The notes beneath the pieces were generated by a model. It saw only the letters and a list, made by a program, of their open reading frames with translations. It was not told the DNA's origin and did not search any database. This document shows positions 804 to 55,784 of a stretch of DNA of 64,000 bases, one piece after another (position 1 is the stretch's first letter; each line of letters opens with the position of its first letter). Origin of the DNA: Escherichia coli (GTDB lineage: Bacteria; Pseudomonadota; Gammaproteobacteria; Enterobacterales; Enterobacteriaceae); NCBI RefSeq assembly GCF_048403405.1, contig NZ_CP183129.1; one strand, 5' to 3'. Made by a program: the position numbers and the translations under genes.

Positions 804-1759
804 TGAAGCAACTTTGGTTTGCCATGTCATTAGTGACAGGTAGCCTGTTATTCTCTGCTAACGCCTCGGCCACTCCCGCGTCCGGGGCGTTATTACAGCA
901 GATGAACCTGGCCAGTCAGTCACTGAATTACGAGCTGTCATTCATCAGCATCAATAAACAGGGTGTTGAGTCTCTGCGTTATCGACATGCACGCCTCGAT
1001 AACCGTCCTCTTGCACAATTGTTGCAAATGGATGGCCCGCGCCGGGAAGTGGTACAGCGCGGCAATGAAATCAGCTATTTTGAACCGGGACTTGAACCGT
1101 TCACGCTTAATGGCGATTACATTGTTGATTCTCTACCATCGCTCATCTATACCGATTTCAAACGCCTTTCTCCTTACTACGACTTTATCTCCGTCGGGCG
1201 CACGCGTATTGCTGATCGTCTTTGCGAAGTCATTCGTGTGGTTGCCCGAGATGGTACACGCTACAGCTACATCGTGTGGATGGACACCGAATCGAAATTA
1301 CCGATGCGGGTTGATCTCCTTGATCGCGATGGTGAAACGCTGGAACAATTTCGCGTGATTGCTTTTAATGTCAATCAGGATATCAGCAGCAGTATGCAGA
1401 CGTTGGCGAAGGCAAATTTGCCGCCGTTGCTTTCTGTTCCTGTAGGTGAAAAAGCTAAATTCAGCTGGACGCCAACCTGGTTGCCACAGGGTTTTAGCGA
1501 AGTTTCCAGTAGTCGACGTCCGCTACCGACGATGGACAACATGCCTATCGAATCACGTCTCTATTCCGACGGATTATTCAGCTTTTCGGTAAACGTTAAC
1601 CGCGCTACGCCATCGAGCACCGATCAGATGTTGCGCACCGGACGCAGAACCGTCAGTACAAGCGTACGTGATAACGCCGAAATCACCATTGTCGGTGAAC
1701 TGCCGCCGCAAACGGCGAAACGCATTGCCGAGAATATTAAGTTCGGGGCAGCGCAATGA
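803..1759 (+). CDS. rseB: sigma-E regulatory protein RseB (318 aa, periplasmic, signal peptide)
   Basis: ORF 803..1759 with N-terminal signal sequence MKQLWFAMSLVTGSLLFSANASA; operon position after rseA. Confidence 0.9.
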   Translation: MKQLWFAMSLVTGSLLFSANASATPASGALLQQMNLASQSLNYELSFISINKQGVESLRYRHARLDNRPLAQLLQMDGPRREVVQRGNEISYFEPGLEPFTLNGDYIVDSLPSLIYTDFKRLSPYYDFISVGRTRIADRLCEVIRVVARDGTRYSYIVWMDTESKLPMRVDLLDRDGETLEQFRVIAFNVNQDISSSMQTLAKANLPPLLSVPVGEKAKFSWTPTWLPQGFSEVSSSRRPLPTMDNMPIESRLYSDGLFSFSVNVNRATPSSTDQMLRTGRRTVSTSVRDNAEITIVGELPPQTAKRIAENIKFGAAQ

Positions 1760-2235
1760 TCAAAGAGTGGGCTACCGTCATCTCCTGGGAAAACGGGCAG
1801 GCGCTGGTTAGTTGTGATGTTAAAGCCTCATGCAGCAGCTGCGCTTCACGCGCCGGTTGCGGTAGCCGCGTGTTGAATAAACTTGGCCCGCAAACCACGC
1901 ATACCATTGTCGTACCCTGTGATGAGCCGTTAGTGCCGGGGCAAAAAGTAGAATTAGGAATCGCCGAAGGCAGCCTGCTTAGCTCCGCATTACTGGTTTA
2001 TATGTCGCCGTTGATGGGACTATTCCTCATCGCTTCACTATTTCAGCTACTCTTTGCTTCAGATATTGCAGCATTATGCGGTGCGATTCTCGGTGGCGTT
2101 GGTGGATTCCTGATTGCACGTGGCTGCTCTCGAAAGTTTGCTGCCCGGTCTGAATGGCAACCGATCATCTTAAGCGTGGCCTTGCCGCCTGGCCTTGTGC
2201 GATTTGAAACATCTTCGGAAGACGCGAGCCAGTGA
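1756..2235 (+). CDS. rseC: RseC/SoxR-reducing system membrane protein (159 aa)
   Basis: ORF 1756..2235 overlapping rseB stop (ATGA); Cys cluster CSSCASRAGC and two hydrophobic segments. Confidence 0.85.
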   Translation: MIKEWATVISWENGQALVSCDVKASCSSCASRAGCGSRVLNKLGPQTTHTIVVPCDEPLVPGQKVELGIAEGSLLSSALLVYMSPLMGLFLIASLFQLLFASDIAALCGAILGGVGGFLIARGCSRKFAARSEWQPIILSVALPPGLVRFETSSEDASQ

Positions 2236-2432
2236 TTTCACTGGCTTTGTTGCATTTTGCATAACAAATGCGAGGACGTTTCCAGATACCACAATCCATA
2301 CGGTATGAACATTTCCTCGCCTCAATGTTGTAGTGTAGAATGCGGCGTTTCTATTAATACAGACGTTAAGCTCAGAACAGCGACTTCTAAAAGCCTGGTT
2401 AACCGGGCATTAAGGCACAATAATCATACTTT

Positions 2433-4232
2433 ATGAAGAATATACGTAACTTTTCGATCATAGCTCACATTGACCACGGTAAATCGACGCTGTCTGACCG
2501 TATTATCCAGATCTGCGGTGGCCTGTCTGACCGTGAAATGGAGGCGCAGGTTCTCGATTCCATGGATCTTGAGCGTGAGCGTGGCATTACCATCAAAGCG
2601 CAAAGCGTGACGCTGGACTACAAAGCGTCTGACGGCGAAACCTATCAGCTTAACTTTATCGACACCCCGGGCCACGTTGACTTCTCTTATGAAGTTTCTC
2701 GTTCGCTGGCTGCCTGTGAAGGTGCATTGCTGGTGGTCGACGCCGGGCAGGGCGTAGAAGCGCAAACCCTGGCAAACTGCTACACCGCCATGGAAATGGA
2801 TCTCGAAGTGGTGCCGGTACTGAACAAGATTGACCTGCCGGCAGCCGATCCTGAACGCGTGGCGGAAGAAATTGAAGATATTGTCGGCATCGACGCCACC
2901 GACGCGGTGCGCTGTTCAGCGAAAACCGGCGTTGGCGTACAGGACGTTCTCGAACGTCTGGTGCGCGACATTCCGCCGCCGGAAGGCGATCCGGAAGGCC
3001 CGTTGCAGGCACTCATTATCGACTCCTGGTTCGACAACTACCTGGGCGTTGTTTCACTTATCCGTATTAAAAACGGCACCCTGCGTAAGGGCGACAAAGT
3101 GAAAGTCATGAGTACCGGGCAGACCTATAACGCCGACCGTCTGGGCATCTTCACGCCAAAACAGGTTGACCGTACTGAACTGAAATGCGGCGAAGTAGGC
3201 TGGCTGGTATGTGCGATTAAAGATATCCACGGCGCTCCAGTAGGCGATACCTTAACGCTGGCGCGTAATCCGGCAGAAAAGGCGCTGCCTGGCTTTAAGA
3301 AAGTCAAACCGCAGGTATACGCCGGTCTGTTCCCGGTAAGTTCCGACGACTATGAAGCCTTCCGTGATGCGCTGGGTAAACTCAGCCTGAACGATGCCTC
3401 ACTGTTCTATGAGCCGGAAAGCTCAAGCGCGCTGGGCTTTGGTTTCCGCTGCGGCTTCCTCGGTCTGCTGCACATGGAGATCATCCAGGAACGTCTGGAA
3501 CGTGAATACGATCTGGATCTGATTACCACTGCGCCGACCGTAGTGTATGAAGTTGAAACCACGTCAAGAGAAGTTATCTACGTCGACAGCCCATCCAAGC
3601 TGCCAGCGGTAAATAACATCTACGAACTGCGCGAGCCGATTGCAGAATGTCACATGCTGCTGCCGCAGGCATATCTCGGCAACGTTATTACGCTGTGCGT
3701 AGAAAAACGCGGCGTGCAGACCAATATGGTTTACCACGGTAATCAGGTGGCGCTGACGTACGAGATCCCGATGGCGGAAGTGGTGCTCGATTTCTTCGAT
3801 CGCCTGAAATCTACCTCGCGTGGTTATGCGTCTCTGGATTACAACTTCAAACGCTTCCAGGCGTCCGACATGGTACGTGTAGACGTATTAATCAACGGTG
3901 AACGTGTTGATGCGCTGGCGTTGATCACCCACCGTGATAATTCGCAAAACCGCGGTCGCGAGCTGGTGGAGAAGATGAAAGATCTAATCCCACGCCAGCA
4001 GTTTGATATCGCTATTCAGGCAGCGATTGGTACGCACATCATTGCGCGCTCCACCGTGAAACAGCTGCGTAAAAACGTACTGGCTAAATGTTATGGCGGC
4101 GATATCAGCCGTAAGAAAAAGCTGCTGCAGAAGCAGAAAGAAGGTAAGAAACGCATGAAGCAGATCGGTAACGTCGAGCTGCCGCAGGAAGCGTTCCTCG
4201 CCATTCTGCACGTCGGCAAAGACAACAAATAA
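2433..4232 (+). CDS. lepA: translation elongation factor 4 (LepA), 599 aa
   Basis: GTPase motifs [17 protein letters not shown] and NKID at the N-terminus; length and context upstream of lepB. Confidence 0.95.
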
Positions 4233-5276: not shown

Positions 5277-5367
5277 GAGATAAATCTCCCGTGGCTAACG
5301 ACATCCCCCGTCGTTGTGTATAGAATATTCCCCCGAAGTTTAAGGTTGGCACCTCCAGGTTGCCACG

Positions 5368-5461
5368 GCACACGAAACAGCGTTGGTCCCCATATACCGG
5401 TAAACTGAAACTGCAGCGAAGCAGTTAGCAGAACCATGTATATCAGGTCTGTTTCGTGTGC
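5368..5461 (+). promoter_or_regulatory. rnc leader long-range stem (candidate RNase III autoregulatory processing hairpin)
   Basis: Perfect 13-bp inverted repeat gcacacgaaacag (5368-5380) / ctgtttcgtgtgc (5449-5461) in the 5' UTR ending about 35 nt upstream of the rnc ATG. Confidence 0.45.
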
Positions 5462-5464
5462 TGA

Positions 5465-7077
<1,613 letters not shown>

Positions 7078-7828: not shown

Positions 7829-8560
7829 ATGGCTGAATTACTGTTAGGCGTCAACATTGACCATATTGCAACGCTGCGTAACGCACGCGGTACTGCTTAC
7901 CCGGATCCGGTGCAGGCGGCGTTTATTGCTGAGCAGGCGGGAGCGGACGGCATTACCGTGCATTTACGTGAAGATCGCCGCCACATTACTGACCGTGATG
8001 TGCGCATCCTGCGTCAGACGCTGGATACCCGCATGAATCTGGAGATGGCGGTGACCGAAGAGATGCTGGCGATCGCCGTTGAGACGAAGCCACATTTTTG
8101 CTGTCTGGTACCGGAAAAGCGTCAGGAAGTAACAACCGAAGGCGGCCTGGACGTCGCAGGGCAGCGTGACAAAATGCGCGATGCCTGTAAACGTCTGGCG
8201 GAGGCCGGGATCCAGGTTTCTCTGTTTATCGACGCCGATGAAGGGCAGATCAAAGCTGCGGCAGAGGTTGGCGCACCGTTTATCGAGATCCACACCGGTT
8301 GCTATGCTGATGCCAAAACTGACGCCGAACAGGCGCAAGAGCTGGCGCGTATCGCCAAAGCCGCGACCTTTGCCGCTAGTCTCGGTCTGAAAGTTAACGC
8401 TGGTCACGGTCTGACCTATCACAACGTGAAAGCTATTGCCGCCATCCCTGAGATGCATGAACTGAATATCGGTCATGCCATTATTGGTCGTGCAGTGATG
8501 ACCGGACTGAAAGATGCGGTGGCAGAAATGAAGCGTTTGATGCTGGAAGCGCGTGGCTAA
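7829..8560 (+). CDS. pdxJ: pyridoxine 5'-phosphate synthase PdxJ (243 aa)
   Basis: ORF 7814..8560; the ATG at 7829 gives [21 protein letters not shown]... Confidence 0.9.
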
Positions 8561-8940
8561 TGGCAATATTAGGTTTAGGTACGGATATTGTGGAGATCGC
8601 TCGCATTGAAGCGGTGATCACCCGATCCGGTGAGCGCCTGGCACGCCGCGTATTAAGCGATAACGAATGGGAAATTTGGAAAACGCACCACCAGCCGGTG
8701 CGTTTTCTGGCGAAACGCTTTGCCGTAAAAGAAGCCGCAGCAAAAGCGTTTGGCACCGGGATCCGCAATGGTCTGGCGTTTAATCAGTTTGAAGTATTTA
8801 ACGATGAGCTTGGTAAGCCACGGCTGCGACTGTGGGGCGAGGCATTAAAACTGGCGGAAAAGCTCGGCGTTGTAAATATGCATGTAACGCTGGCAGATGA
8901 ACGCCACTATGCTTGCGCCACGGTAATTATTGAAAGTTAA
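8560..8940 (+). CDS. acpS: holo-[acyl-carrier-protein] synthase (126 aa)
   Basis: ORF 8560..8940 overlapping the pdxJ stop; [16 protein letters not shown]... 4'-phosphopantetheinyl transferase fold. Confidence 0.9.
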
Positions 8941-8959
8941 AATAATACCGTTCTCTTTA

Positions 8960-9038
8960 AAAAGTAAAACCCCCGAACTGGTAAGGAACAGGGGGTTTAC
9001 TTTACAACTTTAATTTTGTGCAGCACGCACCCTCAACA
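8960..9038 (-). ncRNA. ohsC: OhsC-like antitoxin sRNA (approximate boundaries)
   Basis: Minus strand: -10-like CATAAT (9050..9045), then hairpin 8998..8966 with a U-tract; contains the reverse complement of 9018-9039, which matches the shoB 5' UTR. Confidence 0.5.
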
Positions 9039-9359
9039 AGAGCGATTATGGATCAGGGCGGTTATCTTTTACAAGCAACTTGCAATCTTTAGCATAAAAA
9101 CTCGAGCCTTTACGAAGAAAACAATATTGATGGAAAGATTAACGTGACCGCCAATTCGGAAGTACATTAAAATTGGCTTCGTTATTGGCGATTTTGCTGT
9201 GCTTTATACCATGCCACAGAATTCCCCCATTGAAACGAGTGGTGTCGTCAAAGCTCTGGTGTGGAGTGCAGCATGCACCCTCAATAACTCGCACGTTCAG
9301 TTTTGGGGAGATGTAAGGGCTAATCTGAACGGCTGCATTCCTTGTTTAAGGAAAAACGA

Positions 9360-9440
9360 ATGACTGATTGCCGATACCTTATTAAACGGGTCATCAAAAT
9401 CATCATTGCTGTTTTACAGCTGATCCTTCTGTTCTTATAA
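9360..9440 (+). CDS. shoB: small hydrophobic type I toxin ShoB (26 aa)
   Basis: ATG 9360 preceded by AAGGAAAAACGA; encodes MTDCRYLIKRVIKIIIAVLQLILLFL; too short for the ORF track; lies in the acpS-yfhL spacer. Confidence 0.7.
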   Translation: MTDCRYLIKRVIKIIIAVLQLILLFL

Positions 9441-9457
9441 CATAAGGAAACGTACTT

Positions 9458-9496
9458 AAGGCGCGTCAGGTTAACCAGCCAGGCGCGCCTTTAATA
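9458..9496 (+). terminator. intrinsic terminator downstream of shoB
   Basis: Inverted repeat aaggcgcg...cgcgcctt followed by an AT/T-rich tract. Confidence 0.4.
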
Positions 9497-9634
9497 ATTA
9501 TAAATAAGTGCTTATACAGATAGTGTTATCATTCATGAAATAATTGATATTTATGATCACATCACGAAAATAAATATAAGAACCTGAAGGCTCACACTAT
9601 AAAGTCAACAATAGTCTACTCCAGGAGCAGAATA

Positions 9635-9931
<297 letters not shown>

Positions 9932-18216: not shown

Positions 18217-18400
18217 AGTGGCTCATTCACCGACTTATGTCAGCCCCTTCGGGACGTGCTACATAAAATACGAATGACGCACAACAAGGTGCCTGCCGTC
18301 CAACTTCTGATATCAGCGTAGCTATATCAACCATCGGGCGAAACGTCGAGTTAGGCACCGCCTTATTCCATAACAAAGCCGGGTAATTCCCGGCTTTGTT
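18217..18400 (+). ncRNA. glmY: GlmY small RNA (184 nt)
   Basis: Begins AGTGGCTCATTCACCGACTTATGTCAGCCCC; ends with hairpin aaagccggg-taatt-cccggcttt (18375-18397) plus a U-tract; lies between purL and glrK. Confidence 0.85.
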
Positions 18401-47599: not shown

Positions 47600-47710
47600 T
47601 AAAAAGTATTCAGAATCAGGCCGGAGTGTTTAACACTCCGTAAACACGGTCGTACATCCAGCCGGTAGCCTGGTTCCTTGCATTGAGTGATGTACGGAGT
47701 TTATAGAGCA

Positions 47711-52706: not shown

Positions 52707-52950
52707 TTTCCCCGTCATGCTTCACGCCGCAGATGCGTTGGCTGCGCTCGTTCACCCCAGTCACATAGTTATCTATGCTCCTGGGGCTTCACTCACTTGC
52801 CGCGTGATTCGGCCTTTTGGCCTCACCCCTCCGGGGCCAGCGCAAGCGCTGTTCAAAACGCAATGCGTTTTGTCCTGCAACGCGAATCATTTAGCGGAAA
52901 AATCCTGGGGCTGCCAACTGGCGGCCCTTTTACAAAGAAGGATAACTAAA

Positions 52951-54352: not shown

Positions 54353-55129
54353 ATGTCCGAAACAAAAAACGAACTTGAAGATCTGCTGGAAAAAGCAGCA
54401 ACCGAACCGGCGCACCGCCCGGCCTTTTTCCGTACGCTACTGGAATCCACCGTCTGGGTGCCGGGTACGGCGGCGCAGGGCGAGGCTGTGGTTGAAGATA
54501 GCGCGCTTGATTTACAGCACTGGGAAAAAGAAGACGGCACCAGCGTCATTCCTTTTTTTACCTCGTTAGAAGCACTTCAACAGGCGGTTGAAGACGAACA
54601 GGCATTTGTCGTAATGCCCGTTCGCACATTGTTTGAGATGACCCTTGGCGAAACGCTCTTCCTTAATGCCAAACTGCCGACCGGTAAAGAATTTATGCCG
54701 CGTGAAATCAGTTTGTTGATTGGTGAAGAAGGAAATCCGCTGAGCAGCCAGGAAGTACTGGAGGGCGGTGAATCGCTGATATTATCGGAAGTCGCAGAGC
54801 CACCAGCACAAATGATTGATTCACTCACCACCTTATTTAAAACTATTAAGCCGGTGAAGCGTGCTTTTATTTGTTCAATTAAAGAGAACGAAGAGACACA
54901 GCCTAATTTACTTATTGGCATTGAAGCCGATGGTGATATCGAAGAAATTATTCAGGCGGCGGGAAGTGTAGCGACCGATACATTACCTGGCGATGAACCC
55001 ATCGATATTTGTCAGGTGAAAAAAGGGGAAAAAGGAATTAGCCACTTTATTACCGAACATATTGCGCCATTCTATGAACGTCGCTGGGGTGGCTTTTTGC
55101 GTGACTTTAAACAGAACCGGATAATCTAA
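54353..55129 (+). CDS. sseB: SseB, enhancer of serine sensitivity (258 aa)
   Basis: ORF 54344..55129; start at MSETKNELEDLLEKA. Confidence 0.85.
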   Translation: MSETKNELEDLLEKAATEPAHRPAFFRTLLESTVWVPGTAAQGEAVVEDSALDLQHWEKEDGTSVIPFFTSLEALQQAVEDEQAFVVMPVRTLFEMTLGETLFLNAKLPTGKEFMPREISLLIGEEGNPLSSQEVLEGGESLILSEVAEPPAQMIDSLTTLFKTIKPVKRAFICSIKENEETQPNLLIGIEADGDIEEIIQAAGSVATDTLPGDEPIDICQVKKGEKGISHFITEHIAPFYERRWGGFLRDFKQNRII

Positions 55130-55134
55130 AATAT

Positions 55135-55152
55135 GCCGCCCCAAAGGGCGGC
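55135..55152. terminator. hairpin shared by sseB (+) and the convergent ryfA-like RNA (-)
   Basis: gccgccc-caaa-gggcggc; on the minus strand the stem is followed by AUAUUUUAGAUU. Confidence 0.55.
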
Positions 55153-55160
55153 ATTCGGGC

Positions 55161-55298
55161 TTACTTGCTGCTCTGAAGTTTGTTAACCACCAGTAAATTG
55201 TTACCGGAGAGACTCCGGTTATTATTTACCTCGGTTAACAGCGCACCAGAAACAATAAGTACGATACAAAAGCACCGTATCTTCATTGTGCGGTCCAT
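55161..55298 (-). CDS. candidate small hydrophobic (TimP/type I toxin-like) protein, 45 aa (41 aa from second ATG at 55286)
   Basis: Manual translation: MDRTMKIRCFCIVLIVSGALLTEVNNNRSLSGNNLLVVNKLQSSK; in-frame TGA five codons upstream of the first ATG; no obvious SD; too short for the ORF track. Confidence 0.4.
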   Translation of the reverse strand: MDRTMKIRCFCIVLIVSGALLTEVNNNRSLSGNNLLVVNKLQSSK

Positions 55299-55505
55299 GC
55301 GAAGACCGCATCACGACAGCACCACTGGCGATATTGCCGCGATAGCAAGCGCTGAGACGCGCTTGCCCTAACGGTCGCGGAACATCCTTTCCTTGAGCCA
55401 GCGCCCGCTTGCGAGACGGCGGAAAGGGCCGGTGTCGATAATACGCTAAATAAACAATGATTACTCTCTTTCGCTTGACAAAAAGAGAGTTACTGGCGAG
55501 TATTG

Positions 55506-55606
55506 TGTCCGCTGAGACGCGCTTGCATTACTACGGTAATACAATCTGCTGGAAAGGCCGCGAACCAAACCAGCAACAAATAACCGCCTGATTTTGGCGG
55601 TTTTTT
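55506..55606 (+). ncRNA. candidate antitoxin-type sRNA, module 1 (approximate)
   Basis: TTGACA (55475-55480)-18 bp-AGTATT, then about 100 nt ending in aaccgcc-tgatttt-ggcggtt + TTTTTT (55582-55606); nt 55510-55526 are perfectly complementary to the minus-strand RNA at 55350-55366. Confidence 0.45.
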
Positions 55607-55784
55607 GTTGCTTAAAGAAAGTGAATTTACATGTTTAAGTAATATCTTTTACCGGTTAGTATTTTTAATATTGAGCGGGATTTGTTTATATTTGTCTGAA
55701 TTCGGACTGATAAGCCAAATGAATTCAAAATCTATCCTTTTTTATCTACTTGACATCGTTGATGCATAAAGCGAGTATTGAGTA

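Follow-up and report, generated by a model that had tools for sequence, protein, structure and literature searches.

The spacer between acpS and yfhL of Escherichia coli, located at positions 8959-9496 of the 64-kb stretch of DNA analyzed here (the window), contains a small open reading frame and two copies of a 22-nt sequence. It raises the questions of whether these elements constitute a toxin-antitoxin pair and of how an RNA made from one copy of the repeat could control a gene preceded by the other. The flanking genes, acpS (8560-8940, plus strand) and yfhL (9635-9895, minus strand), are those recognized in an earlier reading of the nucleotide sequence alone (the sequence-only reading). 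That reading had also taken the 26-amino acid hydrophobic peptide encoded in the spacer as the toxin ShoB, and the comparisons confirmed it. The coding sequence occupies positions 9360-9440 of the plus strand (stop codon at 9438-9440), with its ATG at 9360, not 9361, and its product, MTDCRYLIKRVIKIIIAVLQLILLFL, matches K-12 ShoB and the RefSeq protein WP_000128776.1 at every residue; the sole nucleotide difference from the K-12 coding sequence is synonymous. Because neither Pfam nor NCBIfam includes an HMM for this 26-aa peptide, ShoB was identified by direct sequence comparison. Strains matching the window at 100% over a 751-nt query around the locus have this open reading frame annotated in RefSeq as "type I toxin-antitoxin system toxin ShoB". 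The same query matched 5,425 of the 5,426 complete E. coli genomes, and the locus was chromosomal every time. The good Shine-Dalgarno (SD) sequence noticed earlier in front of the open reading frame is AAGGAA at 9348-9353 (plus strand).

The second gene of the pair lies on the minus strand. The Rfam model RF02495 (ohsC_RNA) matched in its full length (1-77) at 8961-9037 with 99.2 bits (gathering threshold, 50), and the antitoxin small RNA OhsC was assigned to 8959-9037, with its 5' end at the G opposite C9037 and a length of 77 nt in Rfam and 79 nt in K-12. The short minus-strand RNA of about 60-80 nt anticipated by the sequence-only reading thus corresponds to an RNA annotated as 77-79 nt. 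The homologous acpS-yfhL spacer of K-12 MG1655 is annotated with the ncRNA ohsC (b4608, 79 nt), which begins with GTTGAGGGTGCATGCTGCAC, and the CDS shoB (b4687), both at positions homologous to those of the window. Alignment of the two spacers showed 95% identity overall and about 98% over ohsC, the shoB leader and the coding sequence. As indicated by the annotation of an identical strain, that of K-12 and the K-12 alignment, ohsC and shoB are divergent and about 320 nt apart in the spacer. The order acpS-ohsC-shoB-yfhL, the ShoB protein, the promoter hexamers, the SD and the gene spacing are the same in K-12 and the window, the leaders share about 98% identity, and the structure of OhsC fits RF02495. 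The differences consist of a T in K-12 at position 9026, where the window has a C, two substitutions in the OhsC terminator stem that create a bulge in the window, a few changes in the spacer of the ohsC promoter, and a strong divergence 3' of the shoB terminator. The open reading frame, the Rfam model, the synteny, the orientation, the promoters and the complementarity of the sRNA 5' end to the leader are all features of the ShoB-OhsC family that were found here. Given the RF02495 match together with the RefSeq and K-12 annotations in the same synteny, the locus is the E. coli chromosomal shoB-ohsC type I toxin-antitoxin pair and the ortholog of the K-12 locus, formerly named ryfB/ryfC (Fozo et al. 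2008). The locus, the sRNA, the pairing site and the toxin are already known; they were described in 2005-2008 and are included in Rfam, EcoCyc and RefSeq.

Consensus scans identified a sigma-70 promoter for shoB, GTGACC-18-TAAAAT, at 9144-9173 (plus strand), with a predicted start at about 9180, and one for ohsC, TTGTAA-18-CATAAT, at 9045-9074 (minus strand). The same hexamers are listed in Table 2 of a population survey covering more than 2,000 genomes of E. coli, which reports conservation above 99% for the open reading frame, the ribosome binding site (RBS) and the promoters, and of 100% for the RBS AAGGAA (PMC11264685). The locus has been reported as CpxR-regulated (PMC9600279), with the CpxR boxes CB1 and CB2 in the divergent promoter region (PMC9600279, PMC11264685). 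A simple terminator scan missed both terminator hairpins owing to its limits on loop size and T-run, and they were found through inverted repeats and folds. The shoB hairpin, followed by UUUAAUAAUU, is located at 9458-9494 (plus strand). The OhsC hairpin, a G+C-rich inverted repeat at 8961-9003 identified from the OhsC fold and the Rfam and K-12 alignments, is probably a bidirectional terminator shared with acpS. In the window, its stem has one bulged U, and the Rfam alignment shows two non-canonical marks. With transcript ends for the window strain taken from the K-12 annotation and the consensus scans, the shoB mRNA is predicted to be about 315 nt long (start at about 9180, end of the hairpin at about 9494) with a 180-nt leader, in comparison with a published full-length transcript of about 320 nt (PMC5397157); the 77-79 nt predicted for OhsC likewise fit the short RNA that has been published. 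Transcripts of 320 and 280 nt have been described, of which the processed one is the only translated form as judged by reporter activity (PMC5397157), and a second 5' end was placed 41 nt downstream of the longest one (PMC5066626). In K-12, cells that overproduce ShoB suffer membrane depolarization and die, and synthesis of the toxin is repressed by OhsC (PMC5397157, PMC8309996). A frame at 9199-9363, open in all haplotypes and ending in a TGA that overlaps the shoB ATG, was considered as a leader peptide of the mok or tisA kind. It is probably non-coding, since its start codons lack an SD and the substitutions between haplotypes that were examined by eye on its translations are all nonsynonymous.

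The sequence that connects both genes is the 22-nt repeat. As the sequence-only reading had noted, one copy, GTGCAGCACGCACCCTCAACAA, is at 9018-9039 and the other, GTGCAGCATGCACCCTCAATAA, is at 9266-9287, and they are identical at 20 of 22 positions. No other copy was found in the 64-kb window on either strand allowing up to three mismatches, and the chance expectation for such a repeat was 0.00 in 100 dinucleotide shuffles. Duplications can produce direct repeats, and the arrangement could in principle be a functionless fossil of one of them next to a small open reading frame that arose by chance. This explanation is as good as dead: the RF02495 match, the occurrence of the locus in 5,425 of 5,426 genomes, the conservation of the open reading frame, RBS and promoters above 99% (PMC11264685) and the concerted change of one block in both copies (see below) stand against it, and the toxicity and repression published for K-12 have already refuted it.

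The first copy of the repeat covers the 5' end of OhsC (nucleotides 1-20, GUUGAGGGUGCGUGCUGCAC, at 9018-9037 on the minus strand) and the second is in the 5' untranslated region of shoB (9266-9285, plus strand). The leader site proposed by the sequence-only reading, 75-94 nt upstream of the ATG, held, and the extent of the pairing was corrected from 22 to 20 bp because OhsC starts at 9037, leaving 9038-9039 upstream of the sRNA. Nucleotides 1-20 of OhsC form with 9285-9266 a duplex of 20 contiguous pairs, 18 Watson-Crick and two G-U, in which the longest perfect run is 10 bp. Both C/T differences between the copies become G-U pairs, as proposed: one is the terminal G1-U and the other the internal G12-U, which is specific to the window allele (G12 lies opposite C9026). 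The T of K-12 at position 9026 specifies A12 instead, with an A-U pair, and yields the complementarity of 19 nt that a citing paper gives for K-12, between the shoB 5' untranslated region and the beginning of OhsC (PMC3919570). In the window, this perfect match of 19 nt is converted into 10 bp, a G-U pair and 8 bp. The published pairing region therefore falls on the 22-nt repeat. When OhsC nucleotides 1-20 were compared with 60-nt tiles from both strands of the entire window, their best partner, setting aside the complementary strand of ohsC itself, was the leader site, with a predicted energy of -39.7 against -29.9 for the next one. Predictions with whole-length OhsC and the full mRNA generated long spurious helices beyond nucleotide 20 and were not used.

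The central wobble and the bulged terminator stem could mean that the window allele is a partly disabled antitoxin, in which lower OhsC activity or stability would leave ShoB less repressed. In its favor, the longest stretch of perfect pairing is 10 bp in place of the 19 bp of K-12, the terminator hairpin of OhsC contains one bulge that K-12 lacks, and a few mismatches are enough to abolish repression in the zor-orz systems (PMC3919570). Nonetheless, this explanation is improbable. The predicted duplex energy is almost the same in the window and K-12 (-38.8 vs -39.2 kcal/mol), the promoter elements, the SD and the open reading frame are intact, and the allele, fixed in 505 complete genomes, also occurs in the representative of another Escherichia species (L009). 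In addition, the O157-type allele, which has a true U-U mismatch, is found in about 1,593 genomes. The G12-U wobble is predicted to be nearly neutral, and the window carries a minority natural variant with a harmless-looking central G-U wobble.

What the two genes are, where the complementarity lies and how it co-varies among strains follow directly from the present analysis or the literature, and the next question is how binding at this place would silence shoB. Direct occlusion of the RBS is excluded by the distance of the target from the ATG, 75-94 nt. Folding of the leader pointed to a different possibility. In the minimum free energy (MFE) folds obtained for the leaders of the window, K-12 and O157, element 1 (9195-9211, plus strand), in the 5' part of the full-length mRNA, is predicted to pair with 9257-9273 in a 17-bp helix of -24.2 kcal/mol, which masks that half of the target of OhsC that does not vary. 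Divergent systems with an antitoxin directed at the 5' untranslated region (tisB/istR-1, zorO/orzO, dinQ/agrB) have a long structured leader in which the 5' end masks the antitoxin target or the element that activates the RBS until processing relieves it, and in shoB this feature is a prediction from the MFE folds. In the predicted folds, the SD AAGGAA pairs with UUCCUU in a small hairpin, and the AUG is also base-paired. A 10-nt element located 5' of the SD, GCUGCAUUCC at 9332-9341 (plus strand), includes the anti-SD and has an alternative partner, GGAGUGCAGC at 9263-9272, with which it is predicted to form a 10-bp helix of -16.7 kcal/mol. The predicted energies of the leader duplexes are then -24.2 (elements 1 and 2), -16.7 (2 and 3) and -5.0 kcal/mol (3 and 4). 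The published processing, which takes away 41 nt from the 5' end, would remove element 1. When the helix between elements 2 and 3 was enforced in the RNA starting at +41, the SD was open at a cost of 2.0 kcal/mol over the MFE (-82.2 vs -84.2 kcal/mol); the SD was still closed in the unconstrained MFE fold of this RNA. Blocking 9266-9285, which mimics bound OhsC, led to a predicted fold with the SD closed.

A four-element leader with a switch between "mutually exclusive structures", similar to that of dinQ, was suggested for shoB by Kristiansen et al. (PMC5066626), and the folds are consistent with this proposal. In the full-length mRNA, 9195-9211 would pair with 9257-9273 and the anti-SD (9337-9342) would close the SD. 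Once about 41 nt have been removed, pairing of 9263-9272 with 9332-9341 could free the SD. Binding of OhsC to 9266-9285 would return the anti-SD to the SD, and the OhsC:shoB duplex would be a substrate that RNase III cleaves. A leader switch of the dinQ type followed by RNase III cleavage is the most likely mechanism, and a shoB-ohsC pair with pairing of OhsC to the leader and a switch inferred from the folds is almost certainly the best overall explanation of the locus. The resemblance to dinQ-agrB includes a divergent sRNA whose 5' end pairs with a long toxin 5' untranslated region, a primary transcript that is inert and becomes active after the removal of about 41-44 nt, and a four-element leader, predicted here for shoB, in which mutually exclusive helices open or close the SD (PMC5066626). 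The two systems differ in that their sequences and toxins are unrelated, in that agrB pairs over 34 nt and OhsC over 20, and in that the shoB switch is a prediction.

A serious rival to the switch, with which it can hold together, would be competition for a ribosome standby site as described for IstR-1: a single-stranded region around 9266-9285 would be required for loading 30S subunits onto the structured RBS, and OhsC would compete for it, with no refolding of the anti-SD. In every form of the mRNA, the predicted folds leave the SD and the AUG base-paired, and the shoB target, about 75-94 nt upstream of the AUG, recalls the location of the standby site of tisB, at about 100 nt (PMC7708055). 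Furthermore, the predicted probability that the target is unpaired is higher in the +40 form (0.46) than in the full-length mRNA (0.32), and a standby mechanism was proposed for shoB in reviews (PMC5397157, PMC4147584). The tisB-istR-1 pair is like shoB-ohsC in its divergent genes, in about 20 nt of complementarity situated about 100 nt 5' of a sequestered RBS, in a processed mRNA as the translated form and in the cleavage of the duplex by RNase III. It differs in that tisB is controlled by LexA and has a demonstrated standby site with a pseudoknot, whereas in shoB a standby site is only proposed and the regulation reported is by CpxR (PMC9600279). However, competition for a standby site by itself leaves the 10-bp complementarity between 9263-9272 and 9332-9341 with no explanation, and we regard it as possible but rather doubtful.

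Another alternative is that OhsC acts mainly through destruction of the mRNA, with RNase III cleavage inactivating shoB and no direct effect on initiation. Duplexes of about 20 bp are within the range of RNase III, and the length of the OhsC duplex, about 20 bp, fits this enzyme. An RNase III cleavage site was found in vivo in the region of the putative shoB/OhsC duplex (PMC6212723). This site agrees also with the last step of the dinQ-like switch. Destruction as the main effect is unlikely, since a cut at least 75 nt upstream of the AUG spares the RBS and the coding sequence and would need a further step, and dinQ/agrB and bsrG/SR4 are still repressed without RNase III (PMC5066626).

The comparison of strains added a different kind of evidence on the pairing. 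An alignment of K-12, O157:H7 TW14359, NC101, ST648 and others showed two deep haplotypes of the spacer. In the K-12/window type, the ohsC side reads GTGCAGCA(T/C)-GCACCCT-CAAC and the shoB leader side reads GTGCAGCAT-GCACCCT-CAAT; in the O157/NC101/ST648 type, they read GTGCAGCAC-ACGATTC-CAAC and GTGCAGCAC-TCGATTC-CAAT, respectively. In each copy, seven positions within one 8-nt block differ between the haplotypes, and five of them change identically in both copies despite the 248 nt that separate these. The flanks show no variation in the leader copy. Five of the 20 pairs of the helix are changed on both sides, in comparison with zero to one compensatory pairs in controls with a slid register. 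Pair 12 forms a series of A-U in K-12, G-U in the window and G-C in the O157 type. In the O157 type, whose helix contains one internal U-U mismatch, the cognate duplex has a predicted energy of -32.0 kcal/mol. Duplexes between an OhsC of one type and a leader of the other are predicted at -17 to -21 kcal/mol vs -32 to -39 kcal/mol for the cognate ones. The distribution of the changes is in line with the switch model. Under it, the near invariance of GTGCAGCA is expected because it is part of three alternative helices, and the block downstream is free to co-vary because its only partner is OhsC. The helix between elements 2 and 3 itself cannot be tested by co-variation because both elements are without variation in the sequences examined. 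An exact pattern of the architecture, applied to species-representative contigs, returned three representatives, all of the K-12/window type, and no further co-variation. Neither E. albertii nor E. fergusonii was among them, either because the exact pattern missed them or because they are without the locus.

The frequency of each combination was determined by megablast of the 5,426 complete genomes, a non-random sample, with synthetic 64-nt queries consisting of a 32-nt ohsC block and a 32-nt leader block. Since an exact 28-mer is needed, a match identifies an exact allele, and a coverage of at least 80% indicates both blocks in one genome. The K-12 ohsC was found with the K-12/window leader in 2,997 genomes plus 19 split loci (about 3,016), the window ohsC with the same leader in 505 genomes, and the O-type ohsC with the O-type leader in 1,592 genomes plus one split locus (about 1,593). 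About 94% of the complete E. coli genomes therefore have one of three cognate combinations, and about 30% have the internal U-U mismatch. Two cross-combinations were surveyed: the K-12 ohsC with the O-type leader was found in no genome, and the O-type ohsC with the K-12/window leader in one, that of Z1323CEC0015, a clean recombinant whose breakpoint falls between the promoters of ohsC and shoB.

The co-variation of the block probably results from a single evolutionary event. Linkage alone would hold the combinations together, because the sites are only 248 nt apart. Gene conversion between the copies could explain the concerted change, since the sites are direct repeats at this distance. A tentative reading of the data, which could be right but is slightly more likely to be wrong, is that this single-copy type I toxin-antitoxin locus has allelic specificity classes in E. 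coli, K-12/window and O157/B2, possibly generated by gene conversion, that the window allele is a wobble intermediate, its G-U being the middle state of the A-U/G-U/G-C series at pair 12, and that the recombinant Z1323CEC0015 is a natural case of an uncoupled toxin. The K-12/window and O157/B2 classes may lack cross-repression. The zorO-orzO and zorP-orzP pairs of O157:H7 are precedents in that they are divergent, with an 18-nt seed at the 5' end of the sRNA directed at the toxin 5' untranslated region, and small differences in the seed set the target specificity between variants, a property that shoB-ohsC may share. Nevertheless, the zor classes are tandem paralogues in one genome, while those of shoB-ohsC are alleles of a single-copy locus across strains.

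What is new is mild and confined to the allele series and the concerted change of the block, and its value is modest, as a natural experiment on the antisense pairing that a type I antitoxin needs. Three cognate classes are available for such a comparison, with a perfect 19-mer (K-12), a central G-U (window) and a central U-U (O157), and the natural allele pairs are ready material on seed requirements and cross-repression. The survey mentioned above noted variation in the locus and stated that the sufficiency of the pairing "cannot yet be said", and a pairing analysis was not found in its supplement as far as that was accessible (PMC11264685). The near absence of mismatched combinations, among the two tested, bears on this question. 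The other approximately 6% of the genomes have further point variants or no exact block match. About 105 genomes form a class with a single mismatch, and in the one example fetched, DETEC-E1070, it is a G-to-T change at the first base of the target, the sole change seen in the otherwise almost invariant GTGCAGCA. The strain FCI29 has a 1-nt insertion in the target, a singleton that is a private mutation or an assembly error.

The acpS-yfhL spacer splits into two deep haplotypes, one shared by K-12 and the window and the other by the O157, NC101 and ST648 loci (L003, L004 and L005, respectively). A 7-nt block in the region where OhsC pairs with the shoB leader (9018-9037 and 9266-9285) differs in a concerted manner in ohsC and in the leader, which results in five compensatory pairs in the OhsC:shoB-leader duplex. 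An internal U-U mismatch is present in the O157-type duplex. Among 5,426 complete E. coli genomes, the K-12 type accounted for about 56%, the O157 type for about 29% and the window type, with a G-U at pair 12, for about 9%.

A mismatched ohsC/leader pair was found in only one of these 5,426 genomes, that of strain Z1323CEC0015 (L011, NZ_CP148423.1; locus positions ~700-990), where the O157-type ohsC and its promoter are fused to a shoB promoter and leader of the K-12 type. In this strain, the OhsC:shoB duplex is predicted at only about -19 kcal/mol, and Z1323CEC0015 may represent a naturally occurring case of an uncoupled toxin. Strain DETEC-E1070 (L012, NZ_CP116191.1) has an O157-type leader with a G-to-T substitution at target base 1 (TTGCAGCAC…), and the distal C-G pair is consequently lost; the single-mismatch class to which it belongs includes about 105 genomes.

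The 5'-end of the full-length shoB mRNA (9195-9211) is complementary over 17 bp to 9257-9273, a region that spans the OhsC target's invariant half. A 10-bp complementarity also links this region to the anti-SD element (9332-9341). These complementarities fit a switch like that of dinQ-agrB, in which mutually exclusive leader helices open or close the SD, and they also fit published data in which the shoB mRNA is processed 41 nt past its longest 5'-end. The leader also contains a reading frame on the plus strand (9199-9363), which starts at GTG 9199 (54 codons) or ATG 9211 (50 codons), is uninterrupted in all haplotypes and is closed by a TGA overlapping the start codon of shoB (ATGA). This frame was considered as a coding leader peptide. 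Since no SD was found upstream of either start and the inter-haplotype substitutions inspected by eye were all nonsynonymous, it is probably non-coding.

Within the intergenic region, variation is greatest in the spacer and -35 region of the ohsC promoter (9040-9075). The -35 is TTGTAC in the O157 type, replacing TTGTAA, a difference that matches the published 67%/33% split. The variability at 9040-9075 also agrees with that of the CpxR box CB2, which is reported to overlap the ohsC -35. Compared to K-12, the OhsC terminator stem (8961-9003) has two substitutions (…CAGGGGGTTTAC in the window, …CGGGGGTTTTAC in K-12) that produce a bulged U, and strains that combine the window's OhsC 5' allele with a K-12-like terminator stem exist, as in locus L006. 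The differences from K-12 in the shoB terminator stem (9458-9491) are a wobble, an A-A mismatch and a compensatory change of pair 9462-9487 (C-G against T-A). The AT-rich stretch from this terminator to the yfhL stop codon (9497-9634) shares about 60% identity with K-12, against at least 95% in its flanks, and is, at the sequence level, a local hypervariable segment.

Elsewhere in the window, Rfam matched ryfA (RF00126, 309 bits) adjoining IS128 (RF00125, 179 bits) at 55128-55741 on the minus strand. Because in Salmonella a small toxin, TimP, which TimR represses, is reported to be the product of the ryfA locus (PMC7667032), this may be a second toxin/sRNA-type locus. Other matches above the gathering score were AsrC (1720-2551, minus strand) and, on the plus strand, rncO (5335-5549), GlmY (18217-18364) and the iscRS stability element (47600-47709). 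AaHKsRNA22 (52808-52880, minus strand) was a weak match, with 45.3 bits against a gathering score of 39.8.
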